Translations under genes and position numbers: made by a program
The notes under the pieces: model-generated
Databases searched by the model: none
Told to the model about the DNA's origin: nothing
Seen by the model: the letters and a program-made list of their open reading frames with translations, nothing else
NCBI GenBank assembly: GCA_019119775.1
Contig: DWWL01000076.1
Location: 13,240-77,239 of the forward strand
Direction of reading: 5' to 3'
Length of the DNA: 64,000 nt
Source of the DNA: Candidatus Lachnoclostridium pullistercoris
GTDB taxonomy: Bacteria > Bacillota > Clostridia > Lachnospirales > Lachnospiraceae
Shown here: in pieces, positions 162 to 60,150 of the stretch
Layout: each line of letters begins with the position of its first letter
Position numbering within the stretch: the stretch's first letter is position 1

Positions 162-1640
162 TCAGTGATAAATTTTCCGCTCCTCATAAACCGGCTCGGA
201 AGTCAGGCCCACGCCCAGCTTTTTGAAAATATTGATATCCACGTCTGAAAGCATGACGGAGGTGTGCACCTGGCAGCCCTTTAATTTGGACAGCTGGTTT
301 AACGCGATCTGGGCGTTCTCATCGGTAGCCGCGCACATGGACAGAGCGATGAGCACCTCGTCGGTGTGGAGCCTGGGGTTTTTGCTGCCCAGATAGTTGA
401 CCTTCAGCTTCTGGATCGGCTCAATGGCAGAGGGGGCGATCAGATGGATCTCGTGGTCGATATGCCCCAGAGCCTTCACCGCATTTAAGAGAAGAGCGGC
501 GGAAGCGCCTAACAGGTTGGAAGTCTTTCCGGTGACGATGGTTCCGTCCGGCAGCTCCATGGCGGCGGCGGGGGCGCCGGTGGCTTCTGCCAGGTCATTT
601 GCGGCCTTCACAGTGCTCCTCATGTCGGGGGAGATCTTCGCCTGCTTCATCAGAAGCTCGATCTTGTAGACCTCATCCCGGCTGCCCTGCTCTTTTGCCA
701 TGCGGTTGAGGGCCTGATAGTAGCGGCGGATGATCTCCTGGCAGGAAGCCTCCCTGCACGCCTCGTCGTCGATGATGCAGTTGCCGGCCATATTTACGCC
801 CATGTCCGTGGGGGACTTGTAGGGGCTGGAGCCGTAGATGCCCTCGAAGATGGCGTTGAGCACGGGGAAGATCTCCACGTCCCGGTTGTAGTTTACGGTG
901 GTGACGCCGTAAGCCTCCAGATGGAAGGGGTCGATCATGTTGACGTCGTTTAAGTCGGCGGTAGCCGCCTCGTAGGCCAGGTTGACCGGATGCTTTAACG
1001 GAATATTCCAGATGGGGAAGGTTTCAAATTTTGCGTATCCGGCCTTGATGCCGCGGATGTTCTCGTGGTAGAGCTGGGAGAGGCAGGTGGCCATTTTTCC
1101 GCTGCCCGGTCCGGGAGCAGTGATGATGACTAAGGGCTTGGTGGTCTCGATATAGTCATTTTTCCCGTAGCCTTCCGGGCTGACGATGAGGGAGATGTTG
1201 TTGGGATAGCCGTCGATCACGTAGTGACGGTACACCCGGATGCCCATGTGCTCCAGCTTGCTCTTAAACAGATCGGCCGCCGGCTGTCCGCTGTACTGGG
1301 TGATGACCACGCTGCCCACGTAAAGCCCCTTGTCGGTAAACGCCTGGATCAGCCGCAGCACGTCTACGTCGTAGGTGATGCCCAGATCGTAGCGCACTTT
1401 GTTCTTCTCGATATCCGCCGCGTTGATGGCGATGACGATCTCCGCCTGGTCCGCCAGCTGGAGAAGCATCCGCAGCTTGCTGTCGGGAGCAAATCCGGGA
1501 AGTACCCGCGACGCGTGGTAGTCGTCAAACAGTTTCCCGCCGAATTCCAGATAGAGCTTGTCTCCAAACTGGCTGATCCGCTCCCGGATGTGTTCCGACT
1601 GCATTTTCAGATATTTTTCATTATCAAATCCAATTCGCAT
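162..1640 (-). CDS. DUF1846 (UPF0371) family protein
   Basis: Typical N-terminus GFDNEKYLKMQSEHIRERI..LYLEFGGKLFDDYHASRVLPGF; GPGSGK P-loop-like motif; GGAGG RBS. Confidence 0.9.
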   Translation of the reverse strand: MRIGFDNEKYLKMQSEHIRERISQFGDKLYLEFGGKLFDDYHASRVLPGFAPDSKLRMLLQLADQAEIVIAINAADIEKNKVRYDLGITYDVDVLRLIQAFTDKGLYVGSVVITQYSGQPAADLFKSKLEHMGIRVYRHYVIDGYPNNISLIVSPEGYGKNDYIETTKPLVIITAPGPGSGKMATCLSQLYHENIRGIKAGYAKFETFPIWNIPLKHPVNLAYEAATADLNDVNMIDPFHLEAYGVTTVNYNRDVEIFPVLNAIFEGIYGSSPYKSPTDMGVNMAGNCIIDDEACREASCQEIIRRYYQALNRMAKEQGSRDEVYKIELLMKQAKISPDMRSTVKAANDLAEATGAPAAAMELPDGTIVTGKTSNLLGASAALLLNAVKALGHIDHEIHLIAPSAIEPIQKLKVNYLGSKNPRLHTDEVLIALSMCAATDENAQIALNQLSKLKGCQVHTSVMLSDVDINIFKKLGVGLTSEPVYEERKIYH

Positions 1641-1776
1641 ATCCTGCCTCCGTCTGTGATAAATTATAATTGCTCATAAAGTAATAATATAGCATAATTT
1701 GTCGGCCGGGGGCAATGAAAATTTGAAATATGAAGAAAATATGTTATAATTGGCGGTAGTATGCAAAGGAGAAGAT

Positions 1777-2493
1777 ATGGAACAGATAAGAGAACGGCTG
1801 CAGGAGCTGGCGGACCCGGAATACCGGAAATTTCACAGCGGGCTCCTGCCTGGGACGGAAAACATCCTGGGAGTGAGAATCCCGGATCTGAGGCGCCTGG
1901 CAAAGGAGATTCTGGCGGGAGACTGGCGGGAATTTCTGGAGACAGTTTCCGATGATACTTATGAGGAAAAGCAGCTGCAGGGCCTGGTGACGGCGGGAGC
2001 CTGGAAAAAGATGGAGGCGGAGGAGCTGTTTGAGCGGACAGCCCGCTTTGTGCCGAAGATCGACAACTGGGCGGTGTGCGACGTATTCTGCGGAGATTAC
2101 CGGGCGGCAGACGGAAAGCTGCGCCGGGAGGTGTGGGAGTTTGTGCGCCCGTATTTCCGGAAAGAGGGAGAGTATGAACTGCGGTTTGCGGCAGTGATGG
2201 CCCTCTCCCACTACTGTGATGAGGAGCACGTCCGGGAAGCATTTCATTTTTTTGACGGGATCCACAGTGAAGCCTACTACGTGCGCATGGCCGTGGCCTG
2301 GGCAGTGTCCGTTTACTATGTGAAGCTGCCGGAAATCACCATGGAATATTTAAAAAACTGCGCTCTGGATGACTGGACCTACAACAAGGCTCTGCAGAAG
2401 ATCACAGAGTCCAGGCGCGTGGACCGGGACACAAAGGAAATGGTCCGGAAAATGAAGAGAACAGTGAAAAAAGGAGAGACGAGATCATTATGA
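1777..2493 (+). CDS. DNA alkylation repair protein (AlkD-like, HEAT repeat)
   Basis: ILGVRIPDLRRLAK, IDNWAVCD, YYVRMAVAW motifs; AGGAG RBS before ATG 1777. Confidence 0.85.
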   Translation: MEQIRERLQELADPEYRKFHSGLLPGTENILGVRIPDLRRLAKEILAGDWREFLETVSDDTYEEKQLQGLVTAGAWKKMEAEELFERTARFVPKIDNWAVCDVFCGDYRAADGKLRREVWEFVRPYFRKEGEYELRFAAVMALSHYCDEEHVREAFHFFDGIHSEAYYVRMAVAWAVSVYYVKLPEITMEYLKNCALDDWTYNKALQKITESRRVDRDTKEMVRKMKRTVKKGETRSL

Positions 2494-3242
2494 AACCAAT
2501 TATCAAAACGCCGGAGCAGATTGAGAAGATCCGTCGGGCGGGAGAAGTAAACAATCAGGTGCTGGACGCGGTGGACGCCATGATCCGGGCGGGGATCTCC
2601 ACGGAGGATATTAACCGGGCGGTCCATGAAAAGACTCTGGAGCTGGGGGGAATCCCGGCGCCCCTGAACTTTGAGGGATTTCCCAAGAGCGTGTGCACGT
2701 CCCTAAACGACGTTGTCTGCCACGGGATCCCGTCGGAGGATGTGATCCTGATGGACGGGGACATCATCAATGTGGATGTGACCACTATTGTGGACGGCTA
2801 TTACGCCGACGCGTCCCGGATGTACTGCATCGGAGAGGTGACGCCCCAGGCGAAAAAACTGGTGGATGTGACGAAGGAGTGTCTGGATCTGAGCCTGAAA
2901 GCGGTGCGTCCCGGAGGATATCTGAATGAGATTGGAGCCATTATTGAAGCACATGCGGAGAGAAATGGATTTTCTGTGGTGCCGGACATCTGCGGCCACG
3001 GCGTGGGACTGGATTTTCACGAAAATCCGCTGGTGTTCCATGTGAGAAGAAGGGGAAAAGGGCCGAAGCTGGAGCCGGGAATGATCTTTACCATCGAACC
3101 CATGATCAACGCGGGGGAGAGCGACTGGTTTGTGGATGCGGATGATGACTGGACGGTCTGGACGGAGGACGGAAGTCTGTCTGCCCAGTGGGAGTACACG
3201 GTGCTGGTGACGGAGACGGGGTACGAGATCCTGGCCAGATAG
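2490..3242 (+). CDS. map: Type I methionine aminopeptidase
   Basis: SVCTSLNDVVCHGIP, DGDIINVDVT, GHGVG, FTIEPMIN, SAQWEYT motifs. Confidence 0.95.
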   Translation: MKPIIKTPEQIEKIRRAGEVNNQVLDAVDAMIRAGISTEDINRAVHEKTLELGGIPAPLNFEGFPKSVCTSLNDVVCHGIPSEDVILMDGDIINVDVTTIVDGYYADASRMYCIGEVTPQAKKLVDVTKECLDLSLKAVRPGGYLNEIGAIIEAHAERNGFSVVPDICGHGVGLDFHENPLVFHVRRRGKGPKLEPGMIFTIEPMINAGESDWFVDADDDWTVWTEDGSLSAQWEYTVLVTETGYEILAR

Positions 3243-3284
3243 TTTTTTAAGCGCCCTTCGGGAGAAAACGGAAAGGTGGATAAC

Positions 3285-37751: not shown

Positions 37752-37940
37752 GTTTGTAATTCCTGGGGTGTTCGACCCTCTTACTTCATTTGAACCTACA
37801 GTATGACGTAAGGGATTCCAATATTTTCAGGTGGATGTCAGGCCTCCATTATGAGTGGAAGGCAGAAGCCTGAGTGAGGTTGCCCACCTAGCTTGGCTAG
37901 GAGTCAAACAGTAAGAGACGGCATTTTGGGATTACGAAAG
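37752..37940 (+). ncRNA. ssrS: 6S RNA
   Basis: ~190 nt, no ORF, own promoter and terminator; closing stem GTAATTCCTGGGGTG / CATTTTGGGATTAC, CTCTTACT / AGTAAGAG, TTGAACC motif, central bubble. Confidence 0.85.
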
Positions 37941-46719: not shown

Positions 46720-46793
46720 CGGGGTATGGCGTAGCTTGGTAGCGCGCTCGGCTGGGGGCCGAGAGGTCGCAGGTTCAAATCCTGTTGCCCCGA
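46720..46793 (+). tRNA. tRNA-Pro(GGG)
   Basis: Cloverleaf; anticodon arm CTCGG-CTGGGGG-CCGAG; T-loop GGTTCAAATCC; CCA not encoded. Confidence 0.95.
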
Positions 46794-57939: not shown

Positions 57940-58509
57940 TTATTCTGCCCAGGGAAGGTCCACCTCAATGTAGTCGTGATGAACGGCGGGCAGGAATTTC
58001 TCCAGCACATCGTCCCGCTTCAGCCGCAGGCTGGAGGTGTTGATGCAGGGATGACAGCCGATCAGCTCATGGGTGAGAACGTCTTTGTCGATCAGCAGCT
58101 GGACGCGGTTCTCATGATCGTTCATCAGCCCCATGATGGAGACGGATCCGGGAGTCAGGTCCAGAAACTCTTCCATAAATTCCGGTCCGGCAAAGGACAG
58201 GCGGGCAGAGTGGATCTGCTTGGACAAAACGGCGGTTTTGAATTTTTTCGTTCCCGGCATCATCAGCAGGTAAAATTTCGTTTTCTGCGCGTTGCAGAGA
58301 AAGAGGTTTTTGCAGATTTCAATGCCTAAGAGCCGGTCGATATCGTGGCAGCCCTCGATGGTCCCTACTGCGTCGTGGTCCAGCCGGTCATAGGGGATCT
58401 TCAGCTGATCCAGCAGATCGTAGGTGCGCACCTCCTTCGGGAGACGCCCGGAACAGTCGCCGGGGCGGCCGTGATGCAGGGTCCGGTCTATGTAAAATGC
58501 TTCGCTCAT
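57940..58509 (-). CDS. Prolyl-tRNA editing protein (YbaK/ProX family)
   Basis: CKNLFL, RLSFA, PGSVSIMGLMND, HPCINTSS. Confidence 0.9.
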   Translation of the reverse strand: MSEAFYIDRTLHHGRPGDCSGRLPKEVRTYDLLDQLKIPYDRLDHDAVGTIEGCHDIDRLLGIEICKNLFLCNAQKTKFYLLMMPGTKKFKTAVLSKQIHSARLSFAGPEFMEEFLDLTPGSVSIMGLMNDHENRVQLLIDKDVLTHELIGCHPCINTSSLRLKRDDVLEKFLPAVHHDYIEVDLPWAE

Positions 58510-58742
58510 GTGATTTCCTTCTTTCTGCAGTTTTTAAAGACGTCATTTAGCCTGGACCGCCCCATGATGGCAGCGGTTACGTCTATTATAGCCGGATGGG
58601 GAGAAAATGCAAGAGGGGGACATGCGGCTGAATCTGCCGAATTATGAGCGAATGACCGAACGGATGCGGAATGGGAGCGGGAAGATTTTTGCACCGTTTT
58701 TGCGCTGAATGGAGGATTTTTCTGCAGGAACGGGAGGAGATA

Positions 58743-58836
58743 TGGTATAATATGAGCACTTGACGAGGTATTTCACGAGTCTAGTGCGAATATATGCCTG
58801 GGCGCTTAGCGAGGTATTTCACGAGCTTAGCGGCCA
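58743..58836 (+). ncRNA. Candidate structured leader RNA with twin hairpins upstream of rlmD
   Basis: TGGTATAAT then two hairpins sharing loop GAGGTATTTCACGA with covarying stems. Confidence 0.6.
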
Positions 58837-59004
58837 TGGTATAATGGGCGAAAGCGAGGCTGCGCGGCGGGATCCAGCAAAGCCGGAGGAGAAAGAGAAC
58901 CCCGCGGGTTCTGCCTGGGGATCGGCTGTCTGACGGATGAATCCCGGGCCGGCGGCGCAGGAGAGCAGTTCGGCGGAAAATGATGAAGAAAAAGGAGAAT
59001 ATTG

Positions 59005-60150
59005 ATGAAACAGTGTCCTGTTTTTAAAAAATGCGGCGGATGCCAGTATCTGAATCTGACTTATGAGGAGCAGCTGGAAAAGAAGAAAAAGGAGCTTCAG
59101 CGGCTGCTAAAGGGAACCTGCCCCATTCACGAGGTGATAGGGATGGAAAATCCCTGGCATTACCGCAACAAGGTGCATGCGGTGTTTTCCCATGACCGGA
59201 AGGGAAATCCCATTTCCGGAGTTTATCAGGAAAACAGCCATATTGTGCTGCCGGTGGAGAGCTGCCTGATTGAGGATGAAAAGGCGGATGAGATCATCGG
59301 TACGATCCGCGGGATGTTAAAATCCTTCAAGATCAGGACGTACGACGAGGATACGGGATATGGCCTGCTGCGCCATGTGCTGGTGAAACGGGGATTTGCC
59401 ACGGGAGAGATCATGGTGGTGCTGGTGACGGCCTCCCCCGTTTTTCCTTCGCGGAATAATTTTGTGAAGGCGCTGCGGCAGAAGCACCCGGAGATCACCA
59501 CGGTGATCCAGAATATCAACGGGAGAGACACCAGCATGGTGCTGGGCGACCGGGAACAGGTTCTGTACGGAAAAGGGTATATTGAGGATATTCTCTGCGG
59601 CTGCCGTTTCCGGATCTCTGCGCGCTCATTTTACCAGGTCAACCCGGTGCAGACGGAGGTGCTGTACGCTAAAGCTATGGAATATGCGGGGCTTACGGGG
59701 AAGGAGACGGTGATAGACGCCTACTGCGGGATCGGGACGATCGGGATTGTGGCCAGCAGAAGGGCGAAGCAGGTGACTGGCGTGGAGTTAAATCCTGATG
59801 CTGTCCGGGACGCCGTCAGAAATGCCAGAGCGAATAAGGCGGACAATATCCGCTTTTTCCAGGGCGACGCCGGCGATTTCCTCCAGAAAATGGCGGCGAA
59901 TGGGGAAAAAGCCGATGTGGTCTTCATGGACCCGCCCAGAAGCGGCAGCACGGAGCGCTTCATGGCCGCGGCCGCGGCCATGGGGCCGGAGCGGATCGTG
60001 TATGTCTCCTGCGGCCCTGACACACTGGCCCGAGATCTGAAGTACCTGAGGAAGAAAGGGTATAGAGTGGAGAAGGGAGTGGGAGTGGATTTGTTTCCGT
60101 GGACGGGACATGTGGAGACTGTCGCTCTGCTCACACGATATATTGTATAA
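59005..60150 (+). CDS. rlmD: 23S rRNA (uracil-C5)-methyltransferase, RlmD family (no TRAM domain)
   Basis: CPVFKKCGGC Fe-S motif, SFYQVN, DAYCGIG, DPPRSG, YVSC, HVETV. Confidence 0.92.
   Translation: MKQCPVFKKCGGCQYLNLTYEEQLEKKKKELQRLLKGTCPIHEVIGMENPWHYRNKVHAVFSHDRKGNPISGVYQENSHIVLPVESCLIEDEKADEIIGTIRGMLKSFKIRTYDEDTGYGLLRHVLVKRGFATGEIMVVLVTASPVFPSRNNFVKALRQKHPEITTVIQNINGRDTSMVLGDREQVLYGKGYIEDILCGCRFRISARSFYQVNPVQTEVLYAKAMEYAGLTGKETVIDAYCGIGTIGIVASRRAKQVTGVELNPDAVRDAVRNARANKADNIRFFQGDAGDFLQKMAANGEKADVVFMDPPRSGSTERFMAAAAAMGPERIVYVSCGPDTLARDLKYLRKKGYRVEKGVGVDLFPWTGHVETVALLTRYIV

Follow-up and report, generated by a model that had tools for sequence, protein, structure and literature searches.

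Two hairpins between extended −10 boxes upstream of rlmD in Candidatus Lachnoclostridium pullistercoris: probably one copy of a dispersed, promoter-carrying repeat

The window, i.e., the whole 64,000-nt stretch of DNA analyzed here, carries on its plus strand an rlmD/trmA-type gene that is preceded by a compact block delimited by two identical extended −10 boxes; a second gene, for an aminoacyl-tRNA editing domain, points in the opposite direction. The features of the locus are as follows:

57940–58509, minus strand: gene for a YbaK-type aminoacyl-tRNA editing domain (PF04073, E = 7.2e-22), divergent from rlmD
58743–58751, plus strand: left extended −10 box TGGTATAAT (P1), left boundary of the repeat unit, at the rlmD locus without a good −35
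58753–58790, plus strand: hairpin module 1, GAG + CACT-T-GAC[GAGGTATTTCACGA]GTC-T-AGTG + CGA
58788–58802, plus strand: middle linker CGAATATATGCCTGG, in the alignment resembling a degenerate copy of the box region
58793–58843, plus strand: extended hairpin 2, with upper stem and loop at 58803–58832
58818–58823, plus strand: −35-like hexamer TTCACG within the loop of hairpin 2, 16 nt 5' of the second TATAAT
58837–58845, plus strand: right extended −10 box TGGTATAAT (P2), right boundary of the unit, common to the next unit in tandem arrays
58846–58864, plus strand: truncated start of a family B unit, GGGCGAAAGCGAGGCTGCG
58865–59004, plus strand: remaining rlmD leader, unique to this genome, with the RBS GGAG at 58994–58997
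59005–60150, plus strand: rlmD/trmA-type RNA uracil-5 methyltransferase gene (PF05958, E = 1.9e-21), downstream of the block

Re-reading of the sequence confirmed what the first-pass annotation had described, namely two hairpins with a T·T mismatch at the same stem position and with identical loops, as well as two TGGTATAAT boxes that look like real extended −10 elements. The stem proper of hairpin 1, GCACT-T-GAC[GAGGTATTTCACGA]GTC-T-AGTGC (58756–58787), contains the invariant T·T mismatch and possibly tandem G·A pairs at the base of the loop; the upper part of hairpin 2 (58803–58832) presents the same 14 nt between CGCT-T-AGC and GCT-T-AGCG. Absent from the earlier description was a lower stem of hairpin 2 (58793–58801 paired with 58835–58843), whose 5' arm is the 3' part of the middle linker and which takes in TGGTA of the second −10 box. 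The two loops start 46 nt apart, and the loop 14-mer occurs exactly twice in the window; with up to two mismatches allowed, three matches were observed, as many as in none of 100 shuffles (mean 0.35), so that its recurrence is not due to chance. No gathering-score match to the block was obtained in an Rfam 15 covariance-model scan of the window, none at E ≤ 10 in a permissive scan of 58450–59100 save chance snoRNA matches further downstream, and nothing relevant at 15 loci with other carriers of the hairpin; RF01699 is among the families without a match. The first-pass annotation had not matched the block to an Rfam family either. The only Rfam matches in the window are 6S RNA (37757–37936, 66.7 bits) and a tRNA gene (46720–46793). 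Coding potential of the block was rejected on the grounds that it contains only the 3-codon ATG-AGC-ACT-TGA, which is lost in variant copies, and a terminator function of hairpin 2 was rejected as well, since the hairpin is devoid of a U-tract and was not called by the terminator scan. The further GC stems that had been noted 3' of the second box do exist, but the segment 58846–59004 is unique to this genome (missing in 11 of the 11 congeners searched), leaving its stems without comparative support; a conserved structure in this segment was therefore rejected. The hairpin AGAACCC-cgc-GGGTTCT (58896–58912), which lies in the same genome-specific segment, is followed on the minus strand by a T-rich run and has a terminator-like score.

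Read as RNA, the plus strand of 58752–58848 folds with −37.2 kcal/mol (z = −3.8; 0/200 shuffles as good), the minus strand with only −23.5 kcal/mol, and the plus strand folds far better than shuffles and minus strand under RNA and DNA parameters alike; extended hairpin 2 has −24.9 kcal/mol (z = −4.2). An alignment of 33 copies has 97.8% of its cells paired and both-side changes at 12 of 23 pairs, a level reached by none of 500 shuffles; slid controls gave at most three both-side-changed pairs. Selection on structure rather than plain duplication, as originally surmised, is thus borne out: the structure of the block is constrained, and on one strand. In the lower stem of hairpin 2 (alignment columns 58–64 paired with 98–105), 15 copies have G-C and another 15 have U-A at column 64/98, and 14 have G-U at column 59/104. 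Among the 123 distinct hairpins of a wide set assembled from all DNA fetched, the three pairs adjoining the loop are mixtures of A-T/G-C, G-C/A-T, and C-G/T-A, giving variable loop-adjacent stem triplets (AGC, GGC, AAC, GAT, and others), whereas the T·T mismatch is retained in 114; G·T wobbles outnumber A·C mismatches by 25 to 9, and the loop follows the consensus GAGGTnTTTcACGA. Where the loop is swapped for a longer helix, as in some copies, GAG...CGA is still kept, which would be compatible with tandem G·A pairs plus one G-C pair. These details also bear on the notion of a double-stranded operator pair for a transcription factor that defines a regulon. Each hairpin is an inverted repeat overlapping a promoter, and hairpin 2 covers the −35 region of P2; yet the arms vary freely and stay complementary while the asymmetric spacer is conserved, the opposite of what characterizes a dimer-binding site, and the strand-asymmetric folding with G·T and T·T features, together with the presence of the same module far from promoters, renders an operator very improbable. 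Resemblances to the single-strand-origin motif CS-6 (TAGCGA) and to parS half-sites were dropped, as they involve variable positions or are too short.

With respect to the boxes, a consensus scan identified TTCACG, a spacing of 16 nt, and TG-TATAAT at P2, corresponding to 10/12 matches plus the TG extension, with 0.3 promoter-like sites expected in shuffles. P1 at rlmD consists of the extended −10 only, while the equivalent box at zapA keeps the native −35 seen in congeners. Both may be regarded as putative promoters, P2 as one of σA type. The loop of hairpin 2 supplies the −35-like hexamer for the second box, by which the promoter would be regenerated, and since P1 keeps the native upstream region and P2 forms a second promoter, acquisition of the block would not cut the gene off from its promoter.

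The block is dispersed. The 14-mer pair with its 46-nt spacing recurs at C23, C42, and C55 of the window's own genome (G000), on two other contigs, and the whole block (~105 nt, box to box) is there 100% identical upstream of a MerR gene, 98% identical upstream of zapA, and 91% identical upstream of an AAA_18 (kinase-like) gene. BLAST against 61 related genomes detected the block in 7 of the 11 congeners and partially in three other genera of the family; the further 24 families of the order included in the sample gave no match. We aligned 36 distinct full copies, a lower bound on their number, from G000, G003 (Candidatus Lachnoclostridium avicola), G006 (Lachnoclostridium sp. An14), G007 (Candidatus Lachnoclostridium stercoravium), G010 (Candidatus Lachnoclostridium stercorigallinarum), and G013, of which G003, G007, and G010 are from chicken gut. 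Similarity among the copies ends at the two boxes, beyond which the flanks are unrelated, and in tandem arrays (L048, L040) adjacent units use one common box, resulting in a period of ~93 nt; this repeat unit is referred to as unit A in the following. With essentially all of the 36 copies, the gene that follows is co-oriented, its start lying 4–340 nt beyond the right box, and the upstream neighbor is divergent or in tandem; none of the 36 lies between convergent genes. The right box has decayed in five G010 copies that keep a co-oriented gene 34–120 nt away, indicating that P2 is not always retained. At one G010 locus (L045, G010:C187:3600-9000), three A units spaced ~1.1–1.2 kb apart each precede one of three successive co-oriented genes, two of which encode signal-peptide-like N termini; the right box is decayed in all three units.

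It is this distribution that decides on the earlier proposal of a ligand- or protein-binding tandem RNA of the rlmD leader, that is, an rlmD-specific cis-regulatory RNA acting as a tandem riboswitch or through substrate-mimic autoregulation by RlmD. The block does sit in the rlmD leader and its structure is stable and covarying, but the genes downstream of its copies are functionally unrelated and encode, apart from RlmD, MerR, ZapA, AAA_18, galactokinase, phosphoribosyltransferase, and polysaccharide deacetylase proteins. Conservation at rlmD homologues, chosen beforehand as a test, was not observed: 7 of 8 orthologue leaders are free of the block (G006, G002, G001, G008, G007, G004, and G009), which besides G000 occurs upstream of rlmD only in G003, and the remaining leader is not conserved. 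As to substrate mimicry, UAGCGA, the stretch common to 23S rRNA, falls in three covarying stem positions and hence is not conserved. Going by where the block is found, the rlmD-specific reading is already contradicted, and we give it next to no credence. A false riboswitch lead is thereby removed, and annotators should not take the block for an rlmD regulator.

Filled and empty sites could be compared at four loci (zapA, rlmD, G003:C7, and G007:C55). The zapA promoter of G000 is composed, in this order, of the native −35 region, TGGTATAAT, unit A, ATGGTATAAT, one family B unit, TATAAT, and the native leader, whereas 9/9 congeners shown (ZapA identity up to 94%) have the same flanks and a single TG(G/A)TAT-type box with no insert. 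The rlmD promoter of G009 contains a lone TGTGGTATAAT ~45 nt before the start codon, that of G006 TGATATGAT and no unit; the other two loci are filled only in G003 and G007, respectively. These are recent gains, and the comparisons place the unit exactly on the −10 element. Several details of the junctions deserve consideration. The left box is of the same type as the unit's own right box, unit A being found after TGG and unit B mostly after TGA, and neither of them follows any of the 61 TGCTATAAT or 24 TGTTATAAT boxes in the genome. At G003:C7, the native box of the relatives is TG(C/T)TATAGT but the left box of the filled site is TGGTATAAT, so that simple insertion after the native box does not fit and box conversion has to be assumed. 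The right junction is variable: in G000, the MerR copy ends with the bare box, the rlmD copy continues after the box with 19 nt of B, and the zapA copy with a full B unit; in G003, the box is followed by 12–25 nt of a further A unit. The match of left-box type and the variable right junction would argue against simple cut-and-paste transposition with target duplication. Instead, a left junction fixed at the box combined with a variable right end points to tracts of gene conversion or template switching, in line with what has been proposed for the PeSL cassettes considered below. A galactokinase gene (L217, G001:C6:2875987-2880270) is preceded by TGGTATAAT and then AAGAGCACTTG (left border of unit A) with no hairpin; this border may be the scar of a deletion, or it may go back to an ancestral leader.

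Identity between units amounts to 0.83–0.95 within genomes versus 0.67–0.84 between genomes, and between the G000 and G003 units at rlmD it is no more than 0.835, even though RlmD itself is 96% identical. This speaks for either homogenization inside each genome or repeated re-seeding. Older copies and turnover are indicated by two sites in G000 (C53:13129-13186 and C67:1077-1183) with decayed relatives of unit A, in which boxes and linker are recognizable and hairpin 1 is replaced or partly deleted.

Unit A is not the only module laid out from box to box. Family B, for which we obtained no Rfam match, has at least 18 unit copies at ~14 loci in G000 (window 58846–58864, C20:5425-5515, C53:67083-67251, C35:18189-18331, C33:50928-51071, and ~10 more). 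Its unit of ~81 nt, often in tandem, consists of TG(A/G)TATAAT followed by GAGCGAAAGCGAGCCTGCGGGAGC...GCGAGGCGAGCGGCGAAT... and a hairpin; it starts with GAGCGAAAGCGAG directly after the box, has a GCGAAAGC mini-hairpin at the start, and ends in the hairpin TCACAGGC-tgt-GCCTGTGA that runs into TATAAT. Module C (ATCGACAGATATTATACYTGCGCCGG...CATGTCCGAGGGACATGGTATAAT) at L208 (G007:C55:8198-12484) has the same layout and is combined with A units, and module D at L210 (G008:C7:33034-37320) is laid out likewise. Each of the modules A, B, and C has at its end a hairpin that runs into TG-N-TATAAT, and A and B are joined at a common box at zapA. The flanking direct repeat is the 9–10-nt box in the genus, 11–13 nt long at L139 and L153, and 18 nt, TGG(T/C)ATAATAAGGAAACG, for module D. 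Single hairpins showed no excess of flanking direct repeats (mean longest common word 4.7 versus 4.6 for mismatched flanks), and target-site duplications around them were rejected on this basis.

We also considered that the unit might be a non-autonomous element moved by a single-strand HUH (Y1) transposase in a PATE- or REP/RAYT-like manner, with the hairpins as binding sites and TATAAT as the target or cleavage sequence. Two similar imperfect hairpins on the same strand near both ends, the lack of terminal inverted repeats, the fixed position beside a short specific sequence, the conserved mismatch and loop, and the strand-specific folding would all suit such an element. Its transposase, however, failed to appear in the expected company: in a search of 10 genomes, PF01797 (Y1) was not found in G000, G007, and G010, which harbor 4 to 13 copies each and are metagenome-assembled genomes of 81–94% completeness, nor in G109 with its 9 hairpins and 100% completeness, and none of 11 inspected Y1 genes has a hairpin or box motif within 1.5 kb. 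A Y1/RAYT transposase link was rejected, there being no association over the 10 genomes. All hairpins of five genus genomes lie in short units, meaning that no autonomous form was seen among them, and the unrelated families B, C, and D with their same boundaries as well as the variable right junction also speak against such an element. The hairpin had no match in 2.9 million viral contigs (IMG/VR) or in the plasmids of PLSDB either, which led us to reject a phage or plasmid origin. Taken together, we judge movement by an HUH enzyme to be unlikely.

The hairpin module itself extends well beyond unit A. An exact-pattern scan of one genome per species yielded at least 119 stretches, and among the matches listed all informative taxon names are Lachnospiraceae-type, including [Clostridium] symbiosum, Lacrimispora, Hungatella, Bariatricus, Faecalicatena, Mediterraneibacter, Dorea, Roseburia, Butyrivibrio, and others. 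Among 301 genus representatives that sample the Lachnospiraceae evenly, 30 contain the hairpin at up to two mismatches, the copy number reaching 44; with the reversed pattern as a control, 0/301 matched. The settings of 88 hairpins in 80 loci are diverse: ~22 are of the box type, 25 cap long rod palindromes that vary in their outer stems from copy to copy, with complementarity kept, and 38 are found elsewhere, e.g., 15–70 nt upstream of 16S rRNA (antisense), directly after stop codons or terminators, or in 95-nt tandem units antisense to the next gene. The rods (L074, L076, L080, L123, L126, and L149, from a [Clostridium] symbiosum MAG; L085, L093, L087, and L105) measure ~110–120 nt, with an outer stem of 20–24 bp and a GAGCG(A/C)(A/G)AGCG mini-hairpin in the 3' arm. 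Hairpins upstream of 16S rRNA were seen in several genera (L077, L140, L150, L096, L132); at L096, the hairpin occupies 3230–3259 and the 16S gene 1628–3160 on the minus strand. In the wide set, the hairpin (HP) is arranged relative to its neighboring genes as + HP + in 19 cases, − HP + in 18, − HP − in 13, and + HP − in 1–2. Given these mixed arrangements, the module alone is not tied to sense transcription; the box-type unit is.

This distinction matters for the most serious alternative, according to which the block is a domesticated multi-copy leader RNA within the P1 transcript, either protecting the 5' end from 5'-to-3' decay or being bound by a global RNA-binding protein, with DNA mobility merely delivering it. 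Throughout the genus copies, it is the strand sense to the downstream gene that folds, P1 transcription is predicted to start at the foot of hairpin 1, and the five G010 copies devoid of P2 keep P1 and the hairpins. The preponderance of G·U over A·C (25 versus 9), the G-U at column 59/104 in 14 copies, and the display of a conserved GAGGU by the loop would likewise be in line with a function at the RNA level. Against this stands that the hairpin is equally kept where it is antisense, i.e., upstream of 16S rRNA and at 13 of ~80 loci that have both neighbors on the other strand, that P2 bypasses the hairpins, and that the same gene occurs with or without the unit in very close relatives, the downstream genes having no common function. 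Antisense hairpins in other carriers, as well as turnover among close relatives, weigh against a purely RNA-level regulatory role, and we consider a domesticated leader RNA possible, albeit rather doubtful. A 5'-terminal stabilizing hairpin on P1 transcripts as a host-level effect, an idea prompted by the predicted P1 start at the foot of hairpin 1, is speculative.

The reading that we favor on balance is that the block is one copy of a ~93-nt non-coding, promoter-carrying dispersed repeat (family A) that has spread by copying between −10 boxes; we regard it as probable, with a good measure of reserve. Unit A would have been copied onto promoters of unrelated genes within the Lachnoclostridium-like genus. 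The anatomy of the junctions suggests that it spreads as DNA, through ectopic copying or recombination from one −10 box to another, and its copies would be homogenized, or re-seeded, inside each genome. The unit would survive because it regenerates a promoter, P1 transcripts would carry both hairpins in their 5' leader, and the strand-specific hairpin module may represent a portable unit common to other Lachnospiraceae repeat carriers. Retention of the hairpin probably reflects a reader of that strand, in the form of single-stranded DNA or of RNA, and not the sensing of an rlmD ligand. The invariance of the loop over ~10% of the Lachnospiraceae genera would be hard to explain by recombination alone and, with a one-strand hairpin in several carriers, points to a specific reader.

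One may go a step further and tentatively envisage a previously unrecognized class of promoter-homing non-coding cassettes in gut Lachnospiraceae, although here our doubts outweigh our confidence. Two-box modules would be copied exactly onto the −10 element of σA promoters and regenerate the promoter, the unrelated families A, B, C, and D would use one and the same route, and the hairpin with its T·T mismatch, GAG...CGA, and 14-nt loop would be the handle of a host or selfish factor, common to the rod-palindrome and rRNA-leader carriers. If the box-to-box reading is true, promoters and 5' leaders could be rewired quickly without insertion sequences, by cassettes that land on and restore the −10 element, and tandem promoter arrays of variable length could give rise to strain-level expression differences in abundant gut Lachnospiraceae. 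Since cultured carriers exist, these ideas are testable.

Word searches of the literature returned no description of this repeat, which is weak evidence of absence. The nearest small bacterial repeats are REP/BIME, BOX, and Correia elements, whose defining features the block does not share. REP/BIME sequences are known, together with RAYT transposases, from Enterobacteria and Pseudomonas. Like REPs and REPINs (PMC8049555), the module is an imperfect palindrome of ~30–40 nt in many dispersed intergenic copies, sometimes in arrays, with lineage-specific near-identical populations. It differs from them in that it has GAR...NGA flanks instead of a GTAG/CGTC tag, in that the hairpin pairs are direct (46 nt apart) rather than inverted, in that the copies are found at gene 5' ends on promoters rather than at 3' ends, and in that no cognate Y1/RAYT gene flanked by the repeats was found. 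BOX elements of Streptococcus pneumoniae have the composition boxA-boxB(n)-boxC. They, too, are modular hairpin-forming repeats of a Firmicute, intergenic, with a ~45-nt subunit in variable tandem number, and can affect neighboring expression, but there is no sequence similarity, and BOX elements are neither bounded by −10 boxes nor fixed in orientation to the gene. Correia elements and MITEs carry terminal inverted repeats and are flanked by a fixed target duplication (TA), whereas the element described here has no terminal inverted repeats or fixed-length target duplication and ends in −10 boxes. PATEs, which derive from IS200/IS605, have subterminal one-strand hairpins, no inverted repeats, and a location beside a short specific sequence. 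One-strand hairpins at both ends, the absence of inverted repeats, and a start directly after TATAAT are found in our unit as well; it departs from PATEs in that no TnpA partner with matching ends was found, in its variable right junction, and in the occurrence of several unrelated module families with the same boundaries.

Correia, ERIC, and REPIN elements have been discussed as mobile elements harboring functional promoters (PMC3575422), and what characterizes a putative mobile promoter in the sense of Nijveen, Matus-Garcia, and van Passel, a near-identical upstream sequence bearing a (here predicted) promoter before non-homologous genes, is seen with unit A. This ‘mobile promoter’ idea together with the PeSL (promoter-early stem-loop) composite terminator/promoter cassette of T4-type phages (PMC2839356, PMC4122927) appears to be the nearest concept in the literature, by analogy. 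In the hyperplastic regions of the phages, the sequences flanked by PeSLs are small protein-coding genes, whereas the modules considered here do not code for proteins, belong to bacterial chromosomes, and reside in the promoters of housekeeping genes; the two are unrelated in sequence, and recombination is what we infer in our case. Shared by both is a short conserved stem-loop joined to a promoter and repeated between unrelated sequences, the modules here ending in a hairpin whose 3' arm runs into the −10 box. For PeSLs, it has been proposed that homologous exchange takes place at these stem-loops and shifts the modules lying between them, and if copying from box to box is indeed how unit A spreads, the cassettes of Lachnospiraceae would represent a chromosomal counterpart of this phage idea.
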